Below, piece after piece: positions 1 to 21,009 of a DNA stretch of 59,771 nucleotides. The position numbers and the translations under genes are program-made. The notes under the pieces are model-generated. The model worked only from the letters and a program-made list of their open reading frames with translations, was not told the DNA's origin and ran no database searches. Source of the stretch: an uncultured archaeon (lineage in GTDB: Archaea; EX4484-52; LFW-46); contig CABMCT010000029.1 in assembly GCA_902384675.1 (NCBI GenBank), positions 1 to 59,771 of the forward strand, written 5' to 3'. Each line of letters begins with the position of its first letter. Position 1 is the stretch's first letter.

Positions 1-2152
1 GTATTGCTTCGACAGTTCCTACAGCGCTGTAATATCCCACGATCCTGCTGTTCACCACGAGGTCCTTTGGCCCCGCACCGCATGAGCAGTGCGAAACAAC
101 GCCGCTGTGCGATGTCTTGCAGTTGTTGCAGACAGTTATCTCTCTTGTGTATGCAAAGTATGTTGTAAGTGATTTATCAAGGATTTTCTTTGTCATGTCC
201 CAGAGCGCATCGGGATCAGGAGATGCCTCGCCAAGCCAGATGTGCAGCAGGTTTGACGGGGAGAGTGCATGGAACGGCGATTCGTTCTTTATCTTGTCAA
301 ATACAGACAGTCCCGAATTGACATTGACATGCGTGAAGTTCGAGTAGTACGCTGCTCCTGCTTTGGGGTTTCCCTGCAGCACTGCCCTGCCGTTGAATTT
401 CTTGTAGTCGTCCTGCGCGAATTTGCCGGGCATTGTTTCACCTGGCTGTCTCCATATTGCAAGGTTCAGGCCGGTTTCATCAGACAGCTTCTTTGTATAA
501 TCCATCATGTGCATGAGAAGCTTCATTGCGTAATTATGTGCCTCCTTGCTTTCATGAAGTTCGTATCCAGTATGGGCTTTTACAAATTCGTTCATTCCGC
601 AGAAGCTTAACAGGTAGCTTTCGTTTTCCAGGTCAAAATAAGGGTGCTCATCCTTGCCGCGAAGTCTTGGCTGTGTCAGGAATGGTGCAACTCCTGTTGC
701 AATAATCTTTTTCATGAATGATTTTTTTGCCTTCATTACTTCTGCAAGAAGGTTCATCCTGCTTTCAACCAGCTCATATACCTTTGCATCATCCCCGCCC
801 GCCAGGTATGCAATTCTTGGCAGGTTGAATGAGCCGCACTGCAAAGCCCCCATGCTAAGGGTTCCCTGTCGCGCAAGCTCGTAGTCCTCAGGGTTCTCTG
901 TTGCAAGAACAAGGGAGCAGCATGAAGTGCATGCAACTTCGTCGTCGCTCACATTCTTTACATTATAAATATACGGCCCGCCGAATTTTGCAACATATTT
1001 CATCATGGGCTCAAAGATGTACTGCTGGAGCTCGGGGTCCTTGAACCATGCGGGCTTTACTCCTATATCATCCTTCATCCAGTGGAACATTGCCCCGTTT
1101 GCATCCCCCTTTGTCGATTCGAAGAGATACGCGTACCAGAATTTGAGGACATACTCGCGGTAATCTTCGTAGGAGCCTTTTATAACCTGCCCTCCCGGAA
1201 GAACAATATCAGAATCCTCAGTAAGGTATTTGGGCGGTACAACGAAATTGCTAAGGGATGAGAATGCTGCCTGGCTGCCGCGGCCGACAAGTATATGGTT
1301 CGGCTCGTATCGCATCATCTGCGCAGCCTGCACTATTGCAGTCGGGATTTCCACGCCTCCGAGATTCTTTGTGCTTGAATTATTCTTTGCAGCAGCCTCA
1401 AGGAAAGGTCCGAGTTCCCAGAAAAGATTCCTGAAACTCTGTCCGCCGTTCCAGTTCCTGCTTGCAGCGCCAAGGAATTCGCACACCTGCCTGATTGCTA
1501 CTTCAAGATTCTTTGCAGGGCGCGAGACATTTACATGCCTGCCGTTGCCATCGATGTACAGCCCGTTTCTGAAAATAAAGCGTGCGCTGTGCTGGTGGCA
1601 AAACGGCCTGCCCACATAATCCCTGTCATGGATGTAAATATCCGCGTTCATGTGCGCATATGCAGGATTTCCCCATGGCGTGTTGAAATTATAAAGCGTT
1701 GAGAATGAGTATTGCTCGTTCATCACATCTGCCATTGCCTTGTGTATGAATTCCTCGGAAGGCACGTGGTTGCTGTTTTCTGAATTGTAATTAAAGAAAA
1801 GGTTTTCAACATCTTTTATCGGAAGGCCAACAACAGAAAGCTTGTTTCTTGTTGCAAAGTCTCCCTGCTGTATTGCGTGCGCACACATGAGCTCTCTTAG
1901 CATTCGTGTAGAAACCTCATGCAGCCGGTTCTGTATGTAAAGCTTGTTCAGGTCTGCCATGATTATTTGCGTGTAATATTCCGCGGTTTCGGGGTCTAGC
2001 CCGGCCTCGTTGACATAGACATCATAGATTTTTTTCGGGTTAAAATCGCTTAGCTCCTGGTTGCTTGTCCTTATCTTCGGAAGCTTAAGCTCGGTCCTAA
2101 GAAGCGTTTGTTGCTTTTCAATGTTTGCCGCACTTATTTCAATGTCACTCAT
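1..2152 (-). CDS. nrdD: Anaerobic (class III) ribonucleoside-triphosphate reductase, 3' end runs off the left edge
   Basis: Manual translation from ATG at 2152 stays open to base 1. It has an N-terminal ATP-cone-like segment (LPKIRTSNQELSDFNPKKI), PFCHQH and TSCCSL active-site cysteines, a CNNC...CSC Zn site and the glycyl-radical motif SRIVGYY. It is missing from the ORF track because no stop is in the window. Confidence 0.93.
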   Translation of the reverse strand, partial: MSDIEISAANIEKQQTLLRTELKLPKIRTSNQELSDFNPKKIYDVYVNEAGLDPETAEYYTQIIMADLNKLYIQNRLHEVSTRMLRELMCAHAIQQGDFATRNKLSVVGLPIKDVENLFFNYNSENSNHVPSEEFIHKAMADVMNEQYSFSTLYNFNTPWGNPAYAHMNADIYIHDRDYVGRPFCHQHSARFIFRNGLYIDGNGRHVNVSRPAKNLEVAIRQVCEFLGAASRNWNGGQSFRNLFWELGPFLEAAAKNNSSTKNLGGVEIPTAIVQAAQMMRYEPNHILVGRGSQAAFSSLSNFVVPPKYLTEDSDIVLPGGQVIKGSYEDYREYVLKFWYAYLFESTKGDANGAMFHWMKDDIGVKPAWFKDPELQQYIFEPMMKYVAKFGGPYIYNVKNVSDDEVACTSCCSLVLATENPEDYELARQGTLSMGALQCGSFNLPRIAYLAGGDDAKVYELVESRMNLLAEVMKAKKSFMKKIIATGVAPFLTQPRLRGKDEHPYFDLENESYLLSFCGMNEFVKAHTGYELHESKEAHNYAMKLLMHMMDYTKKLSDETGLNLAIWRQPGETMPGKFAQDDYKKFNGRAVLQGNPKAGAAYYSNFTHVNVNSGLSVFDKIKNESPFHALSPSNLLHIWLGEASPDPDALWDMTKKILDKSLTTYFAYTREITVCNNCKTSHSGVVSHCSCGAGPKDLVVNSRIVGYYSAVGTVEAI

Positions 2153-2220
2153 GTCATCCATCCTCATAAAAAATTTCAACACTACAAAATTATATTTTAA
2201 TCTTATATTCTTTTGCCTCA

Positions 2221-2670
2221 TTACAGCAACTTGTCGATTTCCTTTTTGAAAGACTCGACATCGGTAAATCTTTTGTAGACCGATGCAAATCTGATATATG
2301 CGACTTCGTCAAGCGATTTTAACTTGCGCATCACAACCTGACCTATTTCCGAGCTTTTTACCTCGTGGTCGTCTTCATGCTTCTGCCTTATCTCGGATTC
2401 TATGTCGTTGGCAAGCTTATCTATTGCCTCGTGAGTTATCGGCCTTTTCTCGCATGCGTGCATTATGCCTCGCTTTACCTTTTCCCTGTCAAACTCTTCC
2501 CGGTTCCCGTCCTTTTTAATGACAAGAAGCGACGGCAGTTCTATGCGCTCGTAAGTCGTAAAGCGCCTGCTGCATTTCTCGCACTCTCTTCGCCTTCGGT
2601 TTATGTTGTCTTCGGATTCGCGCGAGTCAAGGACTTTTGTTTCTGTATGCGAGCAAAAAGGGCATTTCAC
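2221..2670 (-). CDS. nrdR: NrdR transcriptional repressor (Zn ribbon + ATP cone)
   Basis: MKCPFC...DSR...RRRRECEKCSRRFTTYE, then ATP cone VIKKDGNREEFDREK and C-terminal LDEVAYIRFASVY. GTG start; directly upstream of nrdD. Confidence 0.97.
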   Translation of the reverse strand: MKCPFCSHTETKVLDSRESEDNINRRRRECEKCSRRFTTYERIELPSLLVIKKDGNREEFDREKVKRGIMHACEKRPITHEAIDKLANDIESEIRQKHEDDHEVKSSEIGQVVMRKLKSLDEVAYIRFASVYKRFTDVESFKKEIDKLL

Positions 2671-2840
2671 GATTTACCACCTTGTTGTTTTTGTAAATCG
2701 TGAAAGCCTTGAACTTCGCGCTCAATGGCTGATAAGGCGAAGCGAATGGATTTCCAACCATCAGCATTATGCAGTGGGTTGGAAAGCTTGGAATACTCAT
2801 CACATGATTTTTCGCCATTCAATGAATGCATTGGGCGAAA
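2665..2840 (+). repeat. Modular palindromic repeat array, copy in the nrdR leader
   Basis: Contains a 13-bp perfect IR (2665-2677/2693-2705), an AAAGCC...GAATGGATTT junction, TTTCCAACCA...TGGGTTGGAAA, AAAGCTTG...CATGATTTTT and TTTTCGCCA...TGGGCGAAA. It is collinear with the copy at 16455-16592. Confidence 0.88.
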
Positions 2841-2867
2841 CTTCTTTGAATAAAGGGGGCATTTCAT
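2667..2867 (-). other. Possible 66-aa upstream ORF (MKCPLYSKKF...) whose stop overlaps the nrdR GTG
   Basis: AAGGTGA ribosome site 5 nt before ATG 2867. The first codons duplicate the nrdR start, and TGA overlaps the nrdR start as GTGA. The body is repeat-derived, so coding function is unproven. Confidence 0.35.
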
Positions 2868-2903
2868 ATTAATCACCTTACACTACCAAGCGAGTGTAAA
2901 CAG

Positions 2904-2919
2904 TCACTAACACTTGGTT
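2904..2919. promoter_or_regulatory. Possible third, degenerate NrdR box
   Basis: TCACTAACACTTGGTT keeps C4, A6, T11 and G13 and lies exactly 31 bp from the 2935 box. Confidence 0.45.
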
Positions 2920-2934
2920 TTTAAAAATCCAAAT

Positions 2935-2981
2935 ATACTATATGTAGTGGTTATCCCCCTTCGCAACACTATTAGTAGTGT
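2935..2981. promoter_or_regulatory. Tandem NrdR boxes (2935-2950 and 2966-2981)
   Basis: ATACTATATGTAGTGG and ACACTATTAGTAGTGT fit the bacterial consensus acaCwAtATaTwGtgt. Start-to-start spacing is 31 bp, the known NrdR spacing. Confidence 0.88.
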
Positions 2982-2997
2982 TATTTAGAATCTCGTC

Positions 2998-3014
2998 TTT
3001 ATATATATTTTGGT
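2998..3014 (-). promoter_or_regulatory. BRE/TATA promoter of the nrdR-nrdD transcript
   Basis: The minus strand reads ACCAAAATATATATAAAG. The expected start is near 2975, inside the 2966-2981 NrdR box. Confidence 0.65.
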
Positions 3015-3058
3015 ACTTGAGCATATATTTTTCGACAGTTATTTCGAATTATATTTCT

Positions 3059-3211
3059 TTAATAAATTACTTCACTGTAATCGAATAATTGCTGTTGGCC
3101 GTAAACTCTTGACGCCGGCTTTATGTCTGAAACAGGATATTTCCTGCTCAGTTCCACTATTTTCTGCTTCATCCTGTGGCGCATGATGAAGCGCTCTGCT
3201 CTGTGGTTCAT
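3059..3211 (-). CDS. Putative 50-aa small protein (MNHRAERFIMRHRMKQKIVELSRKYPVSDIKPASRVYGQQQLFDYSEVIY)
   Basis: Found by manual translation, below the track cutoff. It fills an otherwise empty gap, and TTTATAAG begins 30 nt before the ATG (leaderless geometry). Confidence 0.5.
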   Translation of the reverse strand: MNHRAERFIMRHRMKQKIVELSRKYPVSDIKPASRVYGQQQLFDYSEVIY

Positions 3212-3280
3212 ACTAGAACTAAGTTTTGGGCGCCTTATAAATATGCCGCCTACATGTTGCCGATAGAATTTCAGGTGTGT

Positions 3281-3661
3281 TTATCCGAAGAGGTCTTTCT
3301 TTGTCCAGAGATACCAGACAATAACCCCGGATATAATTATGCCAAGAATGCTTAGTGAAGCAAGGCTTGAGAGCAATCCGATGCCTTCCAATATAAGCGT
3401 TACTGTCCATGCCCATTTTTTCATATTCCACAAGCCATAGTTTATTACAAACTCGACAATGCCCAGAACGAGAATAAAAATACCTGCAAATGCTCCAAGC
3501 CCGCCGAAGAGTACACCAAGCATTCCGGCATAGCTCATCATGCTACCGAGCCCAACCATTGCAATTCCGAGAAGCACAAGCAATCCTGCGCCGATAAATC
3601 CCAGAATGCTGAGTATTGTCACTCCCAAAGGCCTTTCCACGGTTTTATTGCTCTTAGCCAT
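3281..3661 (-). CDS. Small multi-pass membrane protein, unknown function
   Basis: 126 aa with about four Gly-rich hydrophobic segments and an RPLGVTIL N-terminus. Confidence 0.75.
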   Translation of the reverse strand: MAKSNKTVERPLGVTILSILGFIGAGLLVLLGIAMVGLGSMMSYAGMLGVLFGGLGAFAGIFILVLGIVEFVINYGLWNMKKWAWTVTLILEGIGLLSSLASLSILGIIISGVIVWYLWTKKDLFG

Positions 3662-3714
3662 ATCGTCACTATATCTATTATATCAAGTATTAGTATATAA
3701 AGCGATTTTTCGGC

Positions 3715-4230
3715 TTAAATGACCTTTTTTCCTCTTTCCTGCGATATAACGGTTAGTTTTGCCCCGCCGAATTTTTTTGTAAGCTCTTTTCCCTCGAAGA
3801 ATTCATGCAAAAAAACAGCAAGCGCAGCCACTTCAGAATGGGGTTGGCCGGTTACGGCAATGTTATAATCTGCAAGCTGATAGACTTCCCCGGGAACTTT
3901 TTCCCCGCCGACGATTATTAGCACGTCTTTTCCTTTTGATTTCTCTTTTATCTCGGAAATCTTGTCCTGTACCGGCATGCCGTACATCGTAAGATGAATT
4001 TTTATCCCTTTGAATTTCTCGATTATTTTTCTGGATTTTTCCTCGTATCTTATTTTGAATTTTCCACCCCATCTTTTTGCAACATCAGACACGGATTCAA
4101 GGACATTCTCGTCACGCTCCCCGGACAGTATTACTTCGTCTGCTCCAAGAGCACGCGCCGTAAGGCAGACATGGGTCGTAAGGCGCGCATCACGTACGCG
4201 GCGATGGGAAAGTCGGAGGATGGTGAGCAT
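3715..4230 (-). CDS. trm56: tRNA (cytidine-56 2'-O)-methyltransferase, SPOUT family
   Basis: [40 protein letters not shown] and [13 protein letters not shown] are archaeal aTrm56 motifs. Confidence 0.95.
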
Positions 4231-4333: not shown

Positions 4334-6876
4334 ATGCATATCCAAAACGCCGACAGCAGTATGGCGGGGTATGCGTCAGAAGAGGTATCGTCTGTTCTAA
4401 GCCAGCTGGAATCCTCGCGTACTGGCTTGTCAACGCACGAGGCAAAAAGGCGGCTGCATGAATTCGGCCGCAATATTATTGCCGAAAAGGAAGGATTTAA
4501 TGTCCTCTTCAGATTCCTGTCGCATTTTACAAACCCTCTGATTCTGATTCTGCTGTTTGCATCAGCCATATCGGCATTTTTGGGAGAGCGCATGAATGCG
4601 GCTATAATAGGCATTATTGTTCTTTTCGGCGTGCTCCTGAATTTCTATCAGGAATATTCCGCAGATAAGGCGCTAAAAAAGCTAACCGATTCGGTTAAAA
4701 CTACGGTAGCGGTTATCCGGGACGGCAGGCAGGAGGAAATCAGGACCTCGGACATTGTTGCAGGCGACGTGATTTCCTTAAGTTCCGGGGATATGGTTCC
4801 TGCGGATGCCCGGATTATCGAGGCAAAAGATTTCTATGTGAACCAGTCGGCAATAACCGGCGAGGCATTCCCGTGCGAGAAAACAGAGCTTAGGATTAGC
4901 GATGCAAACGCATCTATCAGTTCCATGATTAATGTTGTGTTCTCGGGCACAAATGTCGTAAGCGGCTCGGCAATTGCAGTTGTTGTCAAGACCGGCAAAG
5001 ACACGGAGTTCGGAAAAATTTCCTCAAAGCTTGCAGAATCTCCGGCCAGAAGCGAATTTGAGGCAGGAATTAATAACTTCGGAATTTTCATTATGAAGCT
5101 GACATTTGTCCTTGTTATTTTTATCTTTCTTTTTAATTCGCTGGCAAAGCACAATTATTTTGAGTCTTTTATGTTCGCTATTGCAATTGCAGTCGGCCTG
5201 ACACCCGAACTTTTGCCTATGATCATGTCGACAACAATGATAGCGGGCTCAAAGAAAATGGAGAAAAAAGGGGTTATTGTAAAGCGGCTTTCTTCTATTC
5301 CTAATTTTGGCAGCATGAACATACTATGTACCGATAAAACAGGCACCCTGACAGAAAACAGGATTGAGTTGGTAAAATATACTGATTATGCAGGGAAAGA
5401 TAATGAACGTGTTCTGTTTCTTACGTATCTGAACAGCTCTTTTCAGACAGGTATCAGGAATCCGCTGGATGAGGCCGTCTTGAATTTCAGGAAAGTCGAT
5501 ACAAGGTCATACAAAAAATAGATGAAATTCCTTACGATTTCTTCAGAAAAAGAATGAGTGTTGTAGCAGGCAATTCAAAAGGATATATCATGATTACCAA
5601 GGGAGCGCCGGAGGAGATATTAAAATTATGCAATTATTATGTTGCCGGCTCAAAAAAGGCTAAACTCAATAAAAAAGTTGCGGCAAAAGCGTTGCAGGTC
5701 TACCACGATTTAAGCAACGACGGCTATCGTGTTCTTGCAGTTGCAGAAAAGAAAGTATCAAAGAAGCCCAATTACTCCAAAGACGATGAATCGGATATGA
5801 ACTTTGCGGGGTTTGTATCATTTCTTGACCCGCCAAAAAGAGATATCAAAAGCGTGATTAAAGAGCTGGAGGGGCTCGGCATAGAGGTCAAGGTTATTAC
5901 CGGGGATAATGAACTGGTAACGAAAAAAATATGCGACGAGGTGGGGCTCCGGGTAAATGGCGTTATGCTTGGAGAGCAGATTAGCCGCCTGACCGACAGT
6001 GCGCTAAGAGTCAAGGCGCAAAGCACTACGTTATTTGCCAAATGTTCTCCGACAGATAAAAGCAGGGTAATTTCGGCTCTCCGCTCAGGCGGCGATGTAG
6101 TCGGTTATCTGGGCGACGGTATCAATGACGCCCCGTCTCTTAAGGCTGCGGATGTCGGTATATCTGTCAATAATGCCGTGGATGTTGCAAAAGAGTCTGC
6201 GGATCTGGTCCTGACAAAGAAAAGCCTGCATGACTTAAAAGAAGGTATTATAGAGGGCAGGAAGACATTCGGGAACACGATGAAATATATAATGATGGCA
6301 TTGAGCTCTAATTTCGGAACCATGTTCAGTGCAACGGGAGCAGTGCTTTTTCTCCCGTACTTGCCTATGCTGCCGATACAAATACTCCTGAATAATCTTA
6401 TTTACGATGTCTCGCAGACAGCAATCCCCACGGACAATGTAGATGAGGAATGGACGCAAAAACCGAAGCGCTGGAACATGGATTTTGTCAAAAAGTTCAT
6501 GTATGTGTTCGGCCCGCTGAGTTCTGTGTTTGACTTTATCACATTCTTTATATTGTTTTTAGTTATCAGGGCATCCGCCCCGGTTTTCCAGACAGGTTGG
6601 TTCATAGAATCCCTTGCAACACAAACGCTTGTGATACATATAATCAGGACAAAGGATACCCCGTTTATCAAAAGCACTTCAAGCAGATTATTGGTTTTGA
6701 GCAGCGTGATATGCCTGGCTCTTGGAGTAATATTGCCCTATACTTCACTGGGGAAAGTATTCGGGTTTGAGCCTTTGCCCGGGAATATTTTATTTATCCT
6801 GGCAATAATAGTCCTGGCTTATTTATCTGCTGTGGAGATTGTTAAGAAGTGGTTTTATACTAAATTCAATCTTTGA
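4334..6876 (+). pseudogene. mgtA: Mg2+-importing P-type ATPase split by a 1-nt frameshift at about 5513-5521 (track ORFs 4334-5521 and 5554-6876)
   Basis: TGE, PELLPMI and DKTGTLT lie in part 1; KGAPEE, TGDN, GDGIND and NNLIYDVSQ lie in part 2. Adding one A to the A6 run restores YKKIDEIPYDFFRKRMSVV. The span of 2543 nt equals 3n-1. Confidence 0.85.
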
Positions 6877-20118: not shown

Positions 20119-21009
20119 ATGAAAGATGCTACAGTCATAATCCCTACGCGAAACGAGGAAAAAAACATGAACGAGTGCCTCGCAGCATATTCTAATCAGG
20201 ATTACAACAAGAAGAAATTCGGCATCCTTGTGATTGATGACTGTTCCACGGACAGAACGGCCGATGTTGTTAAAAAATACGCCAAAAAAGACGCGGGGTT
20301 TATAGAGTACATAAAAACTCCGTCGCGCCTTGGCCGCGTAAAATCCCTGAATCTTGGAATAGCAAAGTGCGATACTCCAGTCTTTATAGAGATGAACGCG
20401 GATTGCATCCCCGAAAAAAACTGGTTTCGTGTGCTTATGAACGGATTTTCCGACAAAAAAATTGCTGTGGTAAAAACCACAAGCCTCGGCGAGGGAGCAA
20501 GCAGCGCATACCGTACAGACGTAGTGAAAAAGCTTGGCATGTTTGACGAAAGGTATAATGAAATGGGCTCGGGTTTCCGGATGGATACCGACCTGATGTT
20601 CAGTATTCTTGATGCAGGCTATGAAATAAAGCGGATATCAGGAACCGGCTATGAGCACAAGCATCCTGCGCCGGCAACTTTTAAAGGGAAAATAAAGTAT
20701 GCAATATCGCGCGTCAAAGTGCACCGTTTCGATCCGCTTCTTTATAAAAACCACCCCCAAAGAACAAAGGAAATGCTTGACATACGGTGGGGTTTTTTGA
20801 GGAACCCTGCTCTTGATTTTAAGACAGCGACAGGGCTCTGGAGGGGAACAGGAAGTCTTGAGCTGTCAAGCCCCCAGGGAATAAAAATAATAGAAAACAA
20901 AACGCCGCTTCATGGATTAGTCATAGTTATTCTTGGAATCAGTTATGTTTTTGCGGTAAAGCTTGCGCGGCTTTATGGAAGCATCAAGTTTGGGAAGCTT
21001 CTGGTTTGA
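20119..21009 (+). CDS. GT2 glycosyltransferase
   Basis: VIIPTRNEE, VIDDCSTD and MNAD. Confidence 0.88.
   Translation: MKDATVIIPTRNEEKNMNECLAAYSNQDYNKKKFGILVIDDCSTDRTADVVKKYAKKDAGFIEYIKTPSRLGRVKSLNLGIAKCDTPVFIEMNADCIPEKNWFRVLMNGFSDKKIAVVKTTSLGEGASSAYRTDVVKKLGMFDERYNEMGSGFRMDTDLMFSILDAGYEIKRISGTGYEHKHPAPATFKGKIKYAISRVKVHRFDPLLYKNHPQRTKEMLDIRWGFLRNPALDFKTATGLWRGTGSLELSSPQGIKIIENKTPLHGLVIVILGISYVFAVKLARLYGSIKFGKLLV

Follow-up and report, generated by a model that had tools for sequence, protein, structure and literature searches.

The nrdR-nrdD locus and its leader

The gene for NrdR, a nucleotide-sensing repressor, lies on the minus strand of the window, by which we mean the whole stretch of 59,771 nt analysed here. 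It is followed by nrdD, whose ATG overlaps the nrdR stop codon in the sequence TAATG (Table 1). The protein has the domain order of NrdR: a Zn ribbon (Zn_ribbon_NrdR, PF22811, 4.5e-18) and then an ATP-cone (PF03477, 9.9e-24), as found by Pfam. The Zn-ribbon cysteines C3, C6, C31 and C34 are present in the translation. A TAA is found in frame two codons upstream of the GTG at 2670; as Cys3 of the Zn ribbon is also needed, this GTG is the sole usable start of the gene.

Two NrdR boxes separated by a 15-bp linker are found upstream of the gene, the pair of boxes that characterizes NrdR operons; their consensus positions were taken from PMC13584703. Both boxes, and an element similar to the TATA-like one, are also found in the sister genome, the only other genome in this genus and family. 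The TATA-like element would most likely put the transcription start in or near box 1, with a predicted leader of about 300 nt before nrdR. In the model we favour, transcription of nrdR would be autoregulated through these two boxes. Just 5' of the promoter there is a 50-codon ORF (3059-3211, minus strand, MNHRAERFIMRHRMKQKIVELSRKYPVSDIKP...) without any Pfam match, whose sequence and position are kept in the sister genome. Elsewhere in the window, a P-type cation ATPase is split in two ORFs on the plus strand, 33 nt apart: The first one (4334-5521) contains the N-terminal and E1-E2 domains, and the second one (5554-6876) the hydrolase and C-terminal domains. The split may be real, or it may reflect a broken gene or a sequencing error.

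Table 1. Features of the nrdR locus, and of the corresponding region in the sister genome.
Feature	Position	Strand	Sequence	Remarks
nrdR	2221..2670	-		149 codons, GTG start 2670-2668; nrdD downstream
nrdD (anaerobic ribonucleotide reductase)	2..2221	-		gene cut by contig end; Pfam NRDD 4.9e-100
Direct repeat, downstream copy	2660..2669	.	TGAAATGCCC	10 bp, exact
Direct repeat, upstream copy	2857..2866	.	TGAAATGCCC	10 bp, exact
Hairpin (module D), 13 bp, perfect	2665..2705	-	5' arm TTTCACGATTTAC; 3' arm GTAAATCGTGAAA	5' arm 2705-2693; loop 2692-2678 (15 nt); 3' arm 2677-2665
nrdR Shine-Dalgarno	2676..2683	-	AAGGTGGT	Mostly in hairpin loop; 5-6 nt spacing to GTG
uORF	2667..2867	-	MKCPLYS...GGKS*	66 codons; ancestral-type ATG 2867-2865, stop TGA 2669-2667
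uORF Shine-Dalgarno	2872..2878	-	AGGTGAT	4 nt before ATG; perfect 7-nt complement of 16S 3' end
Inserted stretch	2670..2856	-		187 nt, one repeat copy; 49 blastn and 148 nhmmer matches in same genome
Module A	~2840-2810	-		Hairpin in MFE fold
Module B	2785-2751	-		Hairpin in MFE fold
Module C	~2746-2712	-		Hairpin in MFE fold
Module D (terminal)	2708-2661	-		13-bp hairpin plus closing extension
NrdR box 2	2935..2950	-	CCACTACATATAGTAT	All six conserved positions present; kept in sister genome
NrdR box 1	2966..2981	-	ACACTACTAATAGTGT	C4, A6, T11 and G13 present; kept in sister genome
TATA-like AT-rich element	2997..3010	-	AAATATATATAAAG	Read from sequence; similar element in sister genome
Sister nrdR start region	L032 (G001:C25:5400-7000) 930-1040			ATA at Met position

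The start region of nrdR is found twice. The two copies of TGAAATGCCC are 197 nt apart; by our arithmetic, the chance of a given 10-mer recurring within 300 nt is about 3e-4, and a test for flank duplication at nrdR gives p ~0.005. When the SD sequences are included, the initiation regions (AAGGTGATTAAT-ATGAAATGCCC and AAGGTGGTAAATCGTGAAATGCCC) can be aligned with a single gap and then agree at 20 of 24 positions. An extension of the duplication beyond the 10-bp core, suggested by the peptides MKCPLYS and MKCPFCS, was considered and discarded: Only five of the next ten bases match, in a T-rich sequence, which is not significant.

The added length is 197 nt (3n+2), so that the old SD and ATG now open a frame of 66 codons, the uORF. 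The ORF listed at this place runs from 2876 to 2667, and we count the uORF from the ATG at 2867. Its protein does not belong to any Pfam family. The uORF ends in the sequence GTGA (2670-2667), where its TGA (2669-2667) overlaps the nrdR GTG (2670-2668): a co-directional overlap of four nucleotides, of the -4 class. Such an overlap arises in only one of the three possible insert phases. The open frame itself is unlikely to have arisen by chance: It is found through the full element in only two of about 17 full-length copies of the repeat, the nrdR copy included, and it is closed in 98.3% of shuffled sequences (open in 1.7%).

The anti-SD was taken from the 16S rRNA of the sister genome, whose 3' end is ...GGATCACCTCC; the 16S gene of the genome under study is absent from its assembly. 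With this anti-SD, AGGTGAT is a perfect SD for the uORF, and the nrdR sequence AGGTGGT pairs through one G.U wobble. An imperfect hairpin, GUGUUAGUGACUGUUUACAC/GUAGUGUAAGGUGAUUAAUAU (2880-2915, minus strand), is predicted to pair the SD of the uORF and the AU of its AUG; the 91-nt segment which contains it has -18.9 kcal/mol with z = -2.05, which makes it a weak prediction.

The nrdR start itself lies in a much stronger structure. The two 13-nt arms of the hairpin shown in Table 1 are 100% complementary, and GGC (2708-2706) lengthens the stem by pairing with GCC (2663-2661). The RNA 5'-UUUCACGAUUUAC-loop-GUAAAUCGUGAAA-3' with this GGC/GCC extension has -20.2 kcal/mol, compared with a mean of -7.1 in shuffled sequences (z = -5.4); none of 200 shuffles was as stable. 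In the predicted fold the GTG is fully paired within the 3' arm, as are the next six bases, and AAGGUGG is exposed in the loop. Both arms are within the uORF, so that the predicted structure would sequester the downstream initiation region inside the upstream ORF.

These features were the core of the original prediction, and they are found as it described them: a perfect 13-bp hairpin which sequesters the GTG with AAGGTG in its loop, a start region duplicated 197 bp upstream with a 10-bp core, and a 66-aa uORF which opens in the upstream copy and stops on the GTGA at the nrdR start. It also placed a repeat array between both starts. A repeat is indeed present, but "array" is the wrong word, since TRF finds no tandem repeat in 2400-3300. 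What lies between the starts is a single copy of a dispersed repeat, with three hairpins in addition to the 13-bp one.

A family of dispersed hairpin repeats

The genome is of the DPANN type, 1.2 Mb in 76 contigs, 89% complete. The 49 blastn matches were obtained with 2703-2847 as a query; 70 of the 148 matches found by nhmmer in two rounds have E < 1e-10, which corresponds to about 70 strong copies. They are intergenic; 50 of 66 share the orientation of the gene which follows, and very often they end 25-33 nt 5' of its start. The closest paralogous copy is only 82% identical to the nrdR insert, too little to date the insertion event.

The repeat is formed by separate hairpin modules. An alignment of nine copies shows compensating changes in the stems, for example TTTCCAACC/GGTTGGAAA, TTTTGAACC/GGTTCAAAA and TTTACAGCC/GGCTGTAAA. 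The MFE fold of the nrdR leader consists of exactly four hairpins, A, B, C and D (z = -4.8). A search of Rfam with permissive E-values in 2000-4000 gave only a chance-level match to rncO, with 17 bits against a cut-off of 43 bits.

The terminal module D has a characteristic structure in other copies: It follows the GGCTTT which ends module C, with a short stem, a loop of about 16 nt which starts with CAA and contains GGAG, the return stem and AAATG. A genome-wide regex search found 42 instances, whose 6-bp stems fall into 17 variants; in 32 instances an ORF of 60 codons or more begins at the terminal ATG. The other D modules have a median predicted energy of -7.5 kcal/mol (range -5 to -13.5), and their ATG is placed at the foot of the stem. 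We also counted 32 of the 42 hairpins in which a TAA or TGA ends the 3' arm, 2-4 nt before the ATG; a ribosome entering from upstream in that frame would stop right before the start.

The hairpin at the nrdR start is a module D by its position after GGCTTT, by the SD in its loop and by its terminal AAATG. It is atypical in three features: The stem has 13 bp, GGTGG replaces GGAG, and its own terminal ATG (2665-2663) is out of frame, so that the real start, GTG, falls inside the 3' arm. In the predicted folds, nrdR has its start locked in the strongest D-type stem of the genome.

About a dozen copies of the repeat abut the CCA end of a tRNA gene on the opposite strand, for example C75:15401-15531, C36:23291-23402, C23:5978-6110 and C65:26898-26979. 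These copies have longer terminal stems (10-11 bp), with A/T runs on their flanks, and may act as tRNA terminators.

We have compared the family with known types of mobile repeats. A MITE of the DDE type does not fit: No inverted repeat joins the ends of the insert and there is no regular target duplication. A duplication of the flanks is found in the nrdR copy (10 nt) and in one other copy (12 nt); it is absent at most copies. A REP/RAYT system was also rejected. The only match to PF01797 (Y1) is at C57:3642-3992 (minus strand), on a 4-kb contig without any copy of the repeat, and it is followed by a TnpB-like ORF, which indicates the IS200/IS605 type rather than a solitary RAYT; in a genome which is 89% complete, this does not prove that a RAYT is absent. 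The sister genome has three Y1 genes and very few repeats.

The insert might be absent from the mature message, for example as a bulge-helix-bulge intron, or it might be an artefact of the assembly. Non-canonical introns do occur in DPANN archaea, and the 10-nt flanking repeat would permit an exact restoration of ATGAAATGCCC-TTTTTGC. On the other hand, the predicted folds of the nrdR leader contain no bulge-helix-bulge arrangement. A misjoin induced by repeats is also unlikely, as every other copy shows a divergence of at least 18% from the one at nrdR, and assemblers work with words much longer than 10 nt. In addition, the other copies of the family sit in ordinary intergenic DNA. We consider both possibilities highly improbable.

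A weak version of the nrdR layout is found in an L24e-like ribosomal protein gene (MKCSFCGREVPAGTGK...), which begins with ATGAAATG and lies on the minus strand of another contig of the same genome (C36, start codon at 20656..20654 of the plus strand). A D-type hairpin, TTTCATATA/TATATGAAA, with GGTGA in the loop, holds its ATG within the 3' arm. The predicted energy is only -5.2 kcal/mol, and there is no uORF. A weak stem over a start codon, without a uORF, indicates that the module is not inhibitory by itself and does not by itself require coupling.

These genes suggest that nrdR might also be translated directly. In that case the SD in the 15-nt loop would be shown to a standby 30S subunit, the stem would breathe enough for the GUG to be used, and the uORF would be an incidental scar which contributes little. 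The hairpins with an SD in the loop reach the ATG of at least 32 ORFs, and most of these have an upstream gene which stops before the repeat, so that they cannot be coupled; the L24e-like gene has its start codon in a stem and no uORF. The nrdR GUG is also at the same aligned distance from its SD as the ATGs of the family. But the stem at nrdR has 13 perfect bp and about -20 kcal/mol, compared with a median of -7.5, and it buries the three bases of the start codon and the next six. According to de Smit and van Duin, initiation is reportedly inversely related to the stability of the start site; on this relation, such a difference should cost orders of magnitude in initiation. An open frame of 66 codons with a GTGA stop would also be improbable if it were irrelevant. 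Direct initiation is possible, although we consider it rather unlikely.

The nrdR start in related genomes

The NrdR protein of the sister genome is 92% identical. Exact-protein look-up gave no further relatives of this NrdR, and scans of genome and metagenome collections gave none above 60% identity. The repeat family is barely present in the sister genome and absent from other families of the order. Modules A-C are missing from the sister nrdR leader, which is a single-copy sequence in its genome. The initiation region there (ATGGTGATTGATATAAAATGCCCC) agrees with the upstream copy of the genome under study at 21 of 24 positions and with the downstream copy at 16 of 24, so the upstream copy looks like the ancestral start.

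In the sister genome, the nrdR frame extends without a stop as far as an ATG at 937 of the region given in Table 1, which would give a protein of 178 aa. An 11-nt direct repeat (TAAAAAATGCC/TATAAAATGCC, 92 nt apart) is found at the same site as the duplication described here. A second motif GGTGATT...ATGAAAT opens a 13-codon uORF (MKLRKSRQYCPIC*) from about 953, and a weak D-like hairpin, TTTCATATC/GATATAAAA, with -4.2 kcal/mol, lies over the start. The two species differ in both partners of the base pair formed by the first start-codon base: TTTCAT goes with the putative ancestral ATG (now ATA in the sister), and TTTCAC with GTG. In seven relatives, which belong to five other families, nrdR has only one start (GTG, TTG or ATG), preceded by a plain SD, and the start region is not duplicated.

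According to the original prediction, the insert had arrived together with a duplication of the nrdR start, and the leaders of close relatives should show a single start without insert. The first part stands insofar as the insert is a family copy which is absent from the sister genome, and single plain starts are indeed found in the seven distant relatives. However, the only close relative is not a clean empty site: It carries a short uORF and a duplication of its own, distinct from the one described here, in the same place, so that the history is more complex than one insertion. A recurrent insertion at the AAATGCC site, or an older duplication, is possible. As dS is saturated (about 2), a 10-mer which is still exact and an upstream SD and ATG which are still intact argue that, in the genome under study, the event would be younger than the species split.

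Judging from the comparison with the sister gene, nrdR is under strong purifying selection, with a dN/dS of 0.03, a long-term average that says little about the time elapsed since the insertion. A stretch near its 5' end (nt 24-74, 2597-2647) is identical in both species at 50 of 51 positions, in spite of the dS of the whole gene. Third positions match in 16 of the first 20 codons, compared with about 10 of 20 elsewhere, and the stretch includes the near-palindrome GACTCGCGCGAATC. This suggests an additional constraint on the RNA or DNA of the 5' coding region.

The insertion might also have largely shut off NrdR translation, which the cell would tolerate, or the gene would be heading to loss; the uORF and the position of its stop would then be due to chance. 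The nrdR gene appears to be dispensable in this group, as 18 of the 41 sampled genomes of the order (about half) have no nrdR match. This reading does not agree with an intact nrdR ORF, whose product is so similar to the sister protein and whose dN/dS is so low, nor with two intact NrdR boxes at the correct spacing. Silencing nrdR would also weaken nrdD, whose start overlaps the nrdR stop, and an open uORF frame is unlikely by chance. Given an intact, strongly constrained gene and operator, silencing or a neutral scar is less likely, and we give it little credit. In some relatives (L015-L018, L023, L024, L026 and L029, of family f7 except one of f4) the NrdR frame is open for 814-841 codons: NrdR appears to be fused to NrdD in them.

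Translation of nrdR and comparison with known systems

The best explanation for this locus, with a probability of roughly 0.55, is that a repeat was inserted at the nrdR start and that translation of NrdR now depends on the uORF. A repeat copy, with hairpins A-C and the SD-in-loop hairpin D, would have been placed between codon 4 of the ancestral-type start and the present nrdR start, flanked by TGAAATGCCC. The old SD and ATG would persist upstream and open a frame which crosses the four hairpins and ends at the UGA within GUGA. Free 30S subunits would rarely open a stem of about -20 kcal/mol. Ribosomes starting at the strong upstream site, on the other hand, would unwind it; they might then reinitiate at the overlapping GUG (termination-reinitiation), or the site might be exposed to fresh initiation. 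NrdR output would follow translation of the uORF, and so would part of the NrdD output, through the TAATG overlap. Both routes, termination-reinitiation at a 4-nt overlap and unfolding of a sequestered site by an upstream ribosome, are established in archaea and bacteria (PMC6728339). The synthesis of NrdR probably depends on translation of its leader, and such coupling is the mechanism with the best support. The anatomy of the locus, its membership in the repeat family, the lack of the insert in relatives and the folding energies are results given above; we infer in what order the events took place and that NrdR depends on the uORF.

A broader proposal, which we regard as doubtful, is that the terminal hairpin is a mobile translation-initiation cassette which targets A-rich/ATG junctions at gene starts. 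In nrdR, the docking site would have been the AAATG inside ATGAAATG, which is out of register by five bases, and the docking would have taken place separately in the two sister species. Selection would have kept only those arrangements which rescue NrdR: a coupled uORF in the genome under study and an in-frame upstream start in the sister. If this is true, the locus would be a natural record of a selfish repeat rewiring the translation of a regulator.

In the reading we favour, a selfish hairpin repeat has landed within the first codons of a conserved regulator without killing the gene. [quoted passage not shown] If coupling is true, the cell would depend on translation of a leader encoded by the repeat for its level of NrdR and, in part, for that of the anaerobic ribonucleotide reductase, in a reduced genome of the DPANN type. 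The strong version at nrdR and the weak one at the L24e-like gene provide a simple test bed for the SD-in-loop module present on about 30 other gene starts. There is also a warning for annotation: In leaders of this kind, gene callers may choose the wrong start or predict junk ORFs.

Autoregulated nrdR-nrd operons with paired NrdR boxes have been described (PMC9110341, PMC13584703). The locus studied here resembles them in having two 16-bp boxes, 15 bp apart, with C4, A6, T11 and G13, upstream of nrdR-nrdD. It differs in that the boxes lie over a putative archaeal promoter of the TATA type, with a predicted leader of about 300 nt before nrdR.

Classic cases of translational coupling are mok/hok, the MS2 coat and replicase genes, and infC-rpmI-rplT. 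The nrdR arrangement shares several features with coupled genes (PMC6728339): co-directional ORFs, a 4-nt stop/start overlap, a downstream SD inside the upstream ORF, and a downstream site predicted to be locked by a structure which the upstream ribosome would have to unwind. Unlike the known cases, the upstream ORF is not a gene, it would be the old nrdR start reading through a selfish repeat, and the locking hairpin is a repeat module instead of an evolved operon element.

Mycobacterial interspersed repetitive units (MIRU), described by Supply and colleagues in 1997, are reportedly dispersed intergenic repeats found in operons, with short ORFs which overlap the flanking genes at both their start and their stop; coupling is said to have been proposed for them. 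They are 40-100-bp tandem units without hairpin modules, and ORFs are a property of the family. In contrast, the uORF frame of the nrdR repeat is open only in the nrdR copy and in one other.

REP/BIME, the pneumococcal BOX, ERIC and the Correia elements of Neisseria are short, abundant, intergenic repeats, with modular, covarying hairpins which alter the expression of neighbouring genes. The nrdR repeat is similar to them in being short, abundant, intergenic and modular, with covarying stems. It has neither terminal inverted repeats nor regular target duplications. To our knowledge, no element of these four types ends in a hairpin with an SD in its loop placed exactly on start codons.

Finally, the palindromic elements of Rickettsia (RPE) are also selfish palindromic repeats which land in genes without destroying them. 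RPE are tolerated as in-frame insertions in proteins; the nrdR insert, on the other hand, breaks the frame at codon 4 (3n+2), and survival of the gene would be due to its rebuilt start.
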